DNA of 64,000 nt from Felis catus (taxonomy: Eukaryota), in NCBI RefSeq assembly GCF_018350175.1, contig NC_058368.1, forward strand, positions 31,126,001 through 31,190,000, read 5' to 3'. A program made the translations under genes and the position numbers. This document shows positions 56,781 through 60,240 of this stretch, in pieces; within the stretch, counting starts at the first letter, position 1; every line of letters starts with the position of its first letter. Below the pieces are notes generated by a model, which was given only the letters and a program-made list of their open reading frames with translations, was not told where the DNA came from and made no database searches.

Positions 56781-56945
56781 CCTTTTAAAAAACAGATTTA
56801 TTGAATCTTGTTTTCTCAAGCTCCTTTGTAATCATTGTTCTCACCTCTTCCCTCCTTCACCAAACACCAGTCTGCTTTCTGTCACTATGAATAGATAGTA
56901 GTGAATTCTATAGAAAAATTTTAAATTGAATTATATATATTTTTT

Positions 56946-57312
56946 CTTTAAACATTTTTTTTATTTTTTAAATTTACATCCCAGTTAGTTAGCATATAGT
57001 ACAACAATGATTTCAAGAGTAGATTCCTTAATACCCCTTACCCATTTACCCCATCCCCCCTACAACCCCTCCAGTAACCCTCTGTCTCCATATTTAAGAG
57101 TCTCTTATGTTTTGTCCCCCTCCCCTCCCTCTTTTTATGTTAGTTTTGCTTCCCTTCCTTTATGTTCACCTGTTTTGTATCTTAAAGTCCTCATGAGCAA
57201 AGTCGTATGATATTTGTCTTTCTCTAATTTCACTTAGCATAATACCCTCTAGTTCCATCCACATAGTTTGCAAATGGCAAGATTTCATTCTTTTTGATTG
57301 CCGAGTAATACT

Positions 57313-57362
<50 letters not shown>

Positions 57363-59084
57363 GACACTACATTGTATTTATCTATTCTTCCATTGGACGT
57401 TTGGGCTCTTTCCATACTTTGGCTATTGTTGATAGTGCTGCTATAAACATTGGGGGGCATGTGCCCCTTCGAAACAGCATACCCATATCTCTTAGATAAA
57501 TACCTAGTAGTGCAATTTCTGGGTCATAGGGTAGTTCTATTTTTAATTTTTTTGAGGAACCTCCACACTGTTTTCCAGAGTGGACGCACCAGTTTGCATT
57601 CCTACCAGCAGTGCAAAAGAGATCCTCTATCTCCGCAACCTCACCAACATCTGTTGTTGCCTGAGTTGTTACTGTTAGTCATTCTGACAGGTGTCAGGTG
57701 GTATCTCATTGTGGTTTTGATTTGTATTTCCCTGATGATGAGTGATGTTCATTGAGCATTTTTTCATGTGTCAGTTGACCATCTGGATGTCTTCTTTGGA
57801 GAAGTGTCTATTCATGTCTTTTGCCCATTTCTTCACTGGATTATTTGTTTTTTGGGTATTGAGTTTGATAAGCTCTTTATAGATTTTGGATACTGACCTT
57901 TTATCTGATATGTCATTTGCAAGTATCTTCTCCCATTCTCTCTGTTGCCTTTTAGTTTTGCGGAATGTTTCCTTCGCTGTAGAGAAGCTTTATTTTAATG
58001 AGGTCCCAATAGTTCATTTTTGCTTTTGTTTCCCTTACCTCCAGAGACGTGTTGAGTAAGAAGTTGCTGCAGCCAAAGTCAAAGAGGTTTTTGCCTGCTT
58101 TTTCCTTGAGGACTTTGATGGCTTCCTGTCTTATGTTTAGCTCTTTCATCCATTTTGAGTTTATTTTTGTGTATGGTGTAAGAAAGTGGTCCAGGTTCAT
58201 TCTTCTGCATGTTACTGTCCAGTTTTCCCAGCACCACTTGCTAAAGAGATTGTCTTTATTCCATTGGATATTCTTTCCTGCTTTGTCAAACATTTTTTGG
58301 CTATACATTTGTGGGTCCATTTCTGGGTTCTCTATTCTGTTCCATTGATCTGAGTGTCTGTTTTTGTGCTAGTACCATACTCTCTTGATAATTACAGCTT
58401 TGTAATACATCTTGAAGTCTGGGATTGTGATGCCTGCAGCTTTCTTTTTCAAGATTGCTTTGGCTATTCAGGTTCTTTTCTGGTTCCATACAAATTTGAG
58501 GATTGTTTGTTCTAGCTCTGTGAAGAATGCTGGTGTTATTTTGATAGGGATTGCATTGAATGTCTAGATTACTTTGGGTAGTATCGACATTTTAACAGTA
58601 TTTGTTCTTCCTATCCAGGAGCATGGAATCTTTTTCCATTTTTTTGTGTCTTCTTCAACTTCTTTCATAAGCTTTCTATAGTTTTCAGTGTATAGATTTT
58701 TCACCTCTTTGGTTAGATTTATTCCTAGGTATTTAATGGTTTTTGGTGCAATTACAAATGGGATCGATTCCTTGATTTCTCTTTCTGTTGCTTCATGATA
58801 TGAATAGAAACTGATATATGTGTATAGGAATGCAACTGATTTCTGTGTATTGATTTTATATCCTTAAACTTTGTTGAATTCATGGATCAGTTCTAGCATT
58901 TTTTTTTTGGTGGAATCTGTTGGGTTTTCCATATAGAGTATGATGTCATCTGCAAAGAGTGAAAATTTGACGTCCTTCTGTCCAATATGGATGCCTTTTA
59001 TTTCTTTGTGTTGTCCGATTGCTGAGGCTAAGACTTCCAATACTATGTTGAGTAACAGTGGCGAGAGTGGATATCCCTGTCTTG
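56946..59084 (-). mobile_element. 5'-truncated felid L1 (RT domain to poly-A); 3' part of a SINE-L1 chimera
   Basis: Peptides [29 protein letters not shown] and FDKAGKNIQWNKDNLFSKWCWENW; (TG)n at 57315-57359; T-rich tail. Confidence 0.96.
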
Positions 59085-59184
59085 CACAGGGCCCAACGCG
59101 GGGCTTGAACTCATGAGCTGAGCCATGAGAACCTGATCTGAGCTGAGGTCGGATGCTTAACTGACTGAGCCATCCAGGCACCCC
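59084..59184 (-). mobile_element. 5' half of a CAN-SINE fused to L1 ORF2
   Basis: Minus strand GGGGTGCCTGGATGGCTCAGTCAGTTAAGCATCCGAC..GAGTTCAAGCCCCGCGTTGGGCCCTGTGC runs directly into L1 AAGACAGGGATATCC; no CT tract or tail of its own. Confidence 0.92.
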
Positions 59185-59199
59185 TTATATATATTTTTT

Positions 59200-60240
59200 T
59201 TTCAATGCCTTATTTCACTTGGTATTGGTTGTATAGTTAATTCCCTTTTATTGCTGAGTAGTACCCCAATCAATATGAGTATATATATATGTATGTGTAT
59301 GTATATATATATACACACATACTGTTTTTTTCATCCATTCATCTGATAGACATTAGAATGGTTTCAGATTTTTGGTTTTACGAGAAAACTGTTCTAAATA
59401 TTTGTGTATAAATGCTTTTATTTCTCTTGGGAAAATACATGAAATGAGAATGGCTGCTTTACATATGATAGGTGTATGTTTAACTTTTAAATAACTGACA
59501 TACTGTTTTCAAGGTGGTGGTACCATTTTAAATTCCTAGGAGCAGTTTGTGAAAGTTGCAGCTGACCCATATTCTCACCTACATGTGGTTGTCATTTTTC
59601 ATTTTAAACATTCTAATACATGTGCAAATGTTAACTCATTGTGTCTTAATTTGTATTTTTATGATGAAAAGTGTTGTTGAGTATCTTGTCATGTGTTTAG
59701 TTTTTATCTGAACACCTTCTTTGATACAGTGTTTGGTCAACTATTTGACCTTTTGAAGTTGTGTTCTGTGCTTTCTTATTTATATATTCTGGGTATGAGC
59801 TACTTATGAGATATTGATCTGTTAATATTATCTCTCAGTCAGTGACTTGTGTCTTTTCAATTCTCTTAACAGTGACATGTAAAAATCAGATGTTCTTTTC
59901 TAATTTATCAATATTTTTCTTTTAGAGTTTGTGTTCTATTTAAAATTTTCCAATCCAGTGTCACAAAGATGTCTTGATTTGTTTTCTTCTACAAGTATAC
60001 AGTTTTAGATTCAAAATTTAGGTTTGTAATCCATTTTTCATTTACTTTCAATGAAGAATATGGTTCGAGGTTCATTTTTTGCATATGGATCTCTAATGGT
60101 TTGTTACCATTTGTTAAAAATTAATTGACTATTTGTTGGTCTGCTTCTATGCTATTCATTTTGTTCCACTGATGTATTTATCTTTATGGAAATGCCACAC
60201 TATGTAGACCATATTTTAGTAAACATAATTATCTTATATA
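59200..60240 (-). mobile_element. Old L1M 3' portion (continuation of ~56800-56930, host of the chimera)
   Basis: Degenerate L1 3'UTR/ORF2 motifs colinear across the chimeric insertion. Confidence 0.75.

Follow-up and report, generated by a model that had tools for sequence, protein, structure and literature searches.

Structure of a SINE-L1 composite within an older L1

The window, a 64-kb stretch of the cat genome, carries on its minus strand an older L1 that is interrupted by a composite element. Read along that strand, the order is old L1, an 18-bp copy of a target-site duplication (TSD), nt 1-101 of a CAN-SINE, a truncated L1, an A-rich tail, the other TSD copy and old L1 again (Table 1). 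The L1 part, about 2.1 kb long, is the last portion of an L1; the SINE part covers the first 101 of about 210 nt and does not reach its natural 3' end. The repeat types by themselves suggest a feliform carnivore. The A-box and B-box regions of the SINE head are stretches that we take to be such from the Pol III box pattern.

Table 1. Features of the composite and of the surrounding L1 (window coordinates)
Feature	Position	Strand	Remark
TSD, 5' copy, 18 bp	59185..59202	minus	59185-59199 exact; cut TTG/AAAA on the element strand
CAN-SINE 5' part, nt 1-101, feliform long type	59084..59184	minus	without CT tract or tail here
Presumed Pol III A-box region in SINE head	59161..59176	minus	box pattern as we take it
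Presumed Pol III B-box region in SINE head	59101..59112	minus	box pattern as we take it
GCTCA tandem duplication in SINE head	59114..59123	minus	also in at least 9 ordinary SINE copies
SINE/L1 junction	59077..59084	minus	shared C at 59084, two L1 bases, GACAG
L1, 5'-truncated, ORF2 from within the RT domain to the 3' UTR end	56970..59084	minus	many stops and indels
Chance open frame spanning the junction	58864..59184	minus	106 aa, stop to stop
T4 run	57615..57618	minus	conserved in the L1 family
A-rich tail, 21 nt	56949..56969	minus	ends TGTTT plus A
TSD, 3' copy	56931..56948	minus	one mismatch, at 56946
Host L1 (older), upstream part	59203..59700	minus	same strand as the composite
Host L1 (older), downstream continuation	56870..56930	minus

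An earlier, sequence-only reading of this DNA had described a direct join of the SINE to L1 ORF2 with one nucleotide shared at 59084, and alignment to relatives of both parts confirmed it. Nine further window SINEs align with the head (59184-59084) as far as TGTGC, where the head departs from them. Past this point each of the 29 best head relatives that were fetched goes on as an ordinary SINE, and upstream of the junction each of the 29 best relatives fetched for the L1 side has L1 sequence where the composite has SINE. Neither a TSD nor a tail was found between the SINE head and the L1 in these alignments. The ORF2 remnant also carries an 18-nt insertion (window 58797-58814), missing from nearly all of 28 relatives, which looks like a local duplication.

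The 15-bp duplication said to bound the whole unit was also recovered. The 15-mer core occurs exactly twice in the 64-kb window, at 56931 and 59185; since one copy abuts nt 1 of the SINE and the other lies 21 nt past the L1 end, a chance match of this low-complexity sequence is unlikely. The duplication could be extended to 18 bp with one mismatch (56931-56948 and 59185-59202), longer than the 7-bp minimum applied to chimeras of the Alu/LINE-1 type, and this extent places the cut at TTG/AAAA on the element strand, a near-consensus site of the L1-endonuclease type, within the older L1.

Colinearity of the host L1 across the insert, also claimed earlier, was supported by a genome search: the pair of flank motifs was found in the same order at four other loci, with gaps of 132-189 nt, and the reversed-pattern control gave none. 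The gap inferred here before insertion, with one TSD copy, is 103 nt; the shortfall of about 30 nt sits upstream of the site, judging from one displayed match. In a local colinearity test on the fetched loci, neither of two candidate pairs had the right spacing, a result no better than that of shuffles. An exact 29-mer of the host flank had no match in metagenome contigs.

Immediately after the shared C, a normal SINE reads T-GACAG and the retained L1 reads AA-GACAG. A shared 5-mer this close to the junction was obtained for 15687 of 1076400 random SINE/L1 position pairs (1.5%, a post hoc figure). In the predicted fold of the relative L064 the break falls just before a 3-nt hairpin loop, and 8 of 200 shuffles fold as well. 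The homology fits pairing of the cDNA end with SINE RNA, as in a template switch, or with SINE DNA, as in deletion of the target or later end-joining; it argues mildly against RNA ligation.

The L1 had been described as running to its poly-A. It does reach its 3' end, but the tail is more than a plain run of A, with TGTTT and an A as the last bases before the duplication and 11 nt between the AATAAA of the L1 and the TSD. The motif A4-T[CGT]TTT within 12 nt was seen at 11 of 474 other L1 ends that share the terminal 22-mer, and the same combination of A-run and T-run in 10 of 82 local SINE tails (p 2.6e-4, about a fivefold ratio); this motif was picked with the tail already in view. A smaller count gave 25 of 85 SINE tails versus 2 of 31 L1 ends for a strict motif (p 0.012), and 28 of 85 versus 6 of 31 for a loose one (p 0.17), the 31 L1 rows including one duplicated locus. 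Exact TGTTT was present in none of the 82 SINE tails and at one of the 474 L1 ends. Terminators of the form T[CAG]TTT are described for Can tails in passages of PMC9599045. The tail may be either that of the L1 alone or an L1 tail followed by the terminal remnant of a SINE, and its T-run is the main evidence for a SINE having been there first.

Copy number, transcription and age

It had been proposed that several occurrences of the junction would indicate a chimeric source family. The junction 26-mer, allowing up to 3 mismatches, occurred once in the 2.43-Gb genome, and a gapped search for the B-box motif followed 5-35 nt on by the RT motif also gave one occurrence genome-wide. By BLAST, among the 40 scored of 4502 candidates, only the locus itself spanned both parts. 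The GCTCA-duplication motif of the head had 39 matches in the genome; none of the 22 inspected among the 38 other loci joins L1, three of these 22 being no SINEs and the rest ordinary or internally deleted SINEs. The composite is thus a one-off, single-copy element in this genome. That it might have been copied from a SINE-L1 source element transcribed by Pol III, the start of a new family comparable to SVA, accords with the A-box and B-box regions in its head; given the single junction found by both searches, the absence of L1 at the inspected GCTCA loci and the conserved T4 inside the L1, this reading is largely refuted and we consider it scarcely credible.

A SINE on the minus strand of L052 (2328-2420) is an internally deleted copy, its nt 1-53 running directly into its own tail within one TSD.

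Pol III terminates at runs of T such as T4. The T4 at 57618 is common to 36 of 40 L1 relatives, and a transcript started in the SINE head would be expected to end there, before the tail; a T4 nearer the junction, at 58965, is found in only 2 of 29 relatives. The idea that the SINE supplies the truncated L1 with a Pol III promoter, of which the presumed box regions are present, has no consequence, because the conserved T4 would stop the transcript. Since Pol III would stop before the tail, the composite could not multiply; it is dead and without function.

The frame 58864-59184 matches Pfam RVT_1 at 33.5 bits. It lacks an in-frame ATG within its SINE portion and meets a stop at 58866-58864, beyond which many stops and indels follow. 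This bears out the opinion that the junction is in frame by chance, and a coding role was rejected for the missing start codon and the early stop. A Pfam GED match in the next frame, at 21.5 bits and so at threshold, was taken as a chance match to a coiled coil. ARAGORN found no tRNA gene in the 64-kb window, and Rfam gave only sub-threshold microsatellite and miRNA matches on it.

The L1 part shows 87 private differences over 1975 non-CpG sites (4.4%) when compared with 56 relatives, whose median is 4.0%, and retains 8 of 26 CpG sites. The SINE head differs from the SINE majority at 6 of 70 non-CpG sites and retains 3 of 13 CpGs. One of the six differences is common to all nine GCTCA-duplication copies counted and is a diagnostic base, without which five remain. 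These nine SINEs have a mean divergence of 5.7%, or about 4.3% minus the shared base, and keep 20% of their CpGs. The SINE sub-group and the L1 family were therefore active at the same time (about 4.3% versus 4.4% at non-CpG sites), a weakly discriminating match. Its support for arrival in one step is modest, because the head is nominally, not significantly, the older part (P 0.09 for at least 6 differences) and its divergence is matched by 21 of 71 unselected SINEs.

The head appears to resemble CanSINE subtype IIA, to judge from its lack of the one-base deletion of young copies; feliform CanSINE subfamilies are described in parts of PMC4084570. The GCTCA duplication just before the B box is found in L064, L072, L094, L096, L102, L106, L108, L109 and L111, copies of similar ages, and may represent either a small SINE sub-group or a recurrent slip. 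It was considered as a stutter of the template switch and rejected, as it occurs in ordinary SINEs.

Origin of the composite

We give about an even chance to a one-off chimeric retrocopy, produced by a single L1 insertion with a template switch, and slightly under an even chance to a two-step origin as a whole; these and the following weights are judgements from rough priors and likelihoods. In the one-step account, L1 ORF2p would have nicked the A-rich site in the old L1, and the L1 RNA would have been copied from its tail for 2.1 kb by TPRT. Reverse transcription would then have switched templates to a CAN-SINE RNA near nt 101; the cDNA end may have paired there with the shared C..GACAG, which lies at the tip of a hairpin predicted for the SINE, and so eased the switch. 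Copying would have proceeded to nt 1 of the SINE, and second-strand joining would have left the 18-bp duplication. We infer both the joint arrival of the two parts and RNA as the template of the SINE part.

In favour of one step, a single duplication encloses both parts and adjoins nt 1 of the SINE, and the L1 is not followed by a SINE body as it is in L112, a sequential case; the 11 nt from AATAAA to the TSD would also leave little room for two tails. The agreement in age, the shared 5-mer near the junction, the break next to a predicted loop and the published Alu/LINE-1 and U5 chimeras, together with the many 3'-truncated U6 copies of cat, count on the same side. Against it stand the T-run tail, commoner in SINE tails than at L1 ends, the lack of a clear one-step chimera among the seven other SINE-L1 joints inspected, and the finding in PMC13174262 that the Alu of human chimeras is mostly full length. 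The one-step SINE/L1 chimera proposed in the sequence-only reading is a fair reading of the locus, but its single outer TSD is no proof, because an L1 that has landed in a SINE tail is also bracketed by the TSD of the SINE, as the nest in L059 shows. A nest that had lost the 3' half of its SINE would give the same picture as a one-step chimera.

Two sequential routes have to be set against the one-step account. A full SINE may have come first and made the TSD, the L1 being primed later in its A tail and the cDNA joining the SINE DNA at nt 101 by way of that short homology at the junction; about 110-130 bp of SINE would have been deleted at insertion, and TGTTT would be the surviving end of the SINE tail. 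This possibility, which we hold to be rather unlikely taken by itself, agrees with the enrichment of T-runs in SINE tails, with the terminators known from Can tails (passages of PMC9599045), with the L1s nested in SINE tails or bodies that are common here (L059, L112, L118) and with the 273 pairs of B box and L1 motif within 250 nt. It also has precedents: L1 5' ends typically join target DNA through short homologies (PMC2912911), and 50 L1 insertion-mediated deletions are reported for human and chimpanzee (PMC3543922). It requires two rare events, however, and the tail is short for that of an L1 plus a SINE remnant, the ages of the two parts agree, and exact TGTTT is as rare in the SINE tails as noted above. 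Alternatively, the L1 may have nested in the tail of a full SINE with its own TSD, and a microhomology-mediated deletion may later have removed the 3' half of the SINE, the inner TSD and some L1. The same evidence of tail and nesting bears on this doubtful route, the short junction homology fits an end-joining deletion as well, and the 5' end of the L1 at neither recurrent truncation site of its family is compatible with it, if weakly so. It requires three events, and long-type cut heads are rare: none was seen within the 80 displayed letters among the first 100 of the 273 listed joints.

Ligation of the two RNAs before reverse transcription, a route put forward for U6/L1, with the SINE RNA cut near its hairpin loop and joined to an L1 RNA fragment, is very improbable in our judgement. 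Sense orientation and the break at the predicted loop speak for it, and ligation of this kind has been considered for Alu/LINE-1 and for fragments of U3 (PMC11838501, PMC13174262). It needs no homology, yet homology of the kind expected in 1.5% of cases by chance is present, and the break is internal and not at the Pol III end.

Other SINE-L1 joints and comparison with known chimeras

A SINE B box lies at most 250 nt upstream of one L1 motif at 273 loci in the genome. With gaps of up to 85 nt, two L1 motifs gave 13 and 5 matches, nearly all of them short old SINEs with tails. Five of the seven other joints inspected looked sequential (L059, L112 and L118 clearly; L114 and L116 through weak, imperfect internal repeats), and two, L033 and L113, were neither clearly sequential nor clear one-step chimeras. 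Nesting is the usual route to SINE-L1 adjacency. In those nests the SINE is either complete or continues beyond the L1, and the composite shows neither.

In L059 (about 290-1900) an L1 with its own TSD is nested in a SINE tail and the outer TSD of the SINE brackets both. L112 (41-911) has an L1 with a 16-bp TSD in the CT tract of a SINE, which resumes past the L1 tail. In L118-L119 the L1 lies in a SINE tail and a 13-bp repeat reappears about 90 nt past the L1 tail, a position that suggests a short 3' transduction. L113 (921-1, minus strand) shows a short old SINE, without its end, joined directly to an L1 of a younger type; an antisense L1 3' end breaks up the tail of that L1. L033 (780-1850, minus strand) has an older L1 that holds two tandem SINEs meeting an L1 3' end in an A-rich stretch; no outer TSD was found there.

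Among the 29 fetched L1 copies, 18 were judged 5'-truncated within view, and 7 of these 18 begin at two TGG sites. The 5' ends of L040, L043, L049 and L051 lie at a TGG equivalent to window position ~58371, about 713 nt into the L1 part, three starting exactly there and the fourth one base earlier; those of L034, L046 and L061 lie at a TGG equivalent to ~57603, about 1481 nt into it. Several of these copies carry their own duplications. Two such triples of 5' ends arose in 8 of 200000 uniform simulations. Matches adjacent to a SINE started at exactly these TGG bases in 8 of 13 and 5 of 5 cases, in searches that favour short gaps; of the 13, three others started within a few bases, one upstream and one was unreadable. 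The idea that joints of a SINE tail with L1 at a TGG site are ligation chimeras found no support: the three checked all show an internal repeat, one clear and two weak, suggesting nesting.

The SINE/L1 junction of the composite lies at neither TGG site. The pile-up possibly reflects site-specific cutting of L1 RNA or release of the RT, and no L1 truncation hot spots were found in the literature listings searched. It is improbable, in our view, that the composite belongs to a recurrent feliform class in which the L1 machinery enters SINE RNA at the conserved hairpin loop, as part of a lineage-specific L1 behaviour that would also account for the mostly 3'-truncated U6 copies of cat and the L1 5' ends at exact UGG sites; if it did, site-specific L1 RNA cutting (for example small-RNA-guided) or RT release would be suggested as a source of both truncation and chimeras.

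L1 insertion-mediated deletion was reportedly described by Han et al. in 2005, and U6/L1 chimeras are said to have been described by Buzdin and by Moldovan. Law and Burns (PMC13174262) count 452 Alu/LINE-1 chimeras in human, mostly in sense orientation and from concurrently active families; the preprint (PMC11838501) gives 113. The cat composite resembles these in having a SINE 5' of a 5'-truncated L1 on the same strand within one TSD, at an endonuclease-type site, with concurrently active families and as a one-off. It differs in that its SINE is a tRNA-derived carnivore element cut at nt 101, whereas most of the Alus in that account are full length, and in that co-arrival of Alu and LINE-1 is shown there by multi-species alignment, whereas for the cat composite we infer it.

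Internal switching onto a 3'-truncated sense U5 is described in parts of PMC4476161, where 236 of 279 cat U6 copies are 3'-truncated and 17 of 279 repeat-associated. As in the sense 3'-truncated U5/L1 and U3/L1 chimeras (PMC4476161, PMC11838501, both in part), the 5' part of a small RNA, entered internally, adjoins an L1 3' end in sense orientation within one TSD; unlike them, the partner here is a mobile element abundant as DNA, which makes a nested origin a serious alternative, one that hardly exists for snRNAs. The analogy with U6-L1 drawn in the earlier reading holds for a Pol III RNA 5' part and an L1 3' end within one TSD, but is loose: the U6 partner is typically complete, with its natural 3' end forming the joint (PMC4476161), and the SINE here comprises nt 1-101. 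The sense 3'-truncated U3/U5 chimeras and the Alu/LINE-1 chimeras are closer parallels. L1 insertion-mediated deletion (PMC3543922) would produce the same anatomy at a SINE tail, and requires a prior full SINE. Models of the L1 5' junction and its microhomology are treated in PMC2912911; de novo Alu-Alu chimeras are without TSDs (PMC3415434).

No carnivore (CAN-SINE/L1) chimera was found in the literature searched, with most subscription papers outside its reach, and the canine review PMC13756887 has no passage on chimeras. SINE/L1 chimeras are catalogued in human and the cat locus adds a carnivore example; one dead locus is of little importance in itself. In settings where L1s preferentially insert into SINE tails, one outer TSD is not proof of a one-step chimera. 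The recurring L1 5' ends would matter more if they held genome-wide, since fixed sites make the question of why L1 copies truncate at given points testable; the pile-up at TGG may thus be a better lead than the composite itself.
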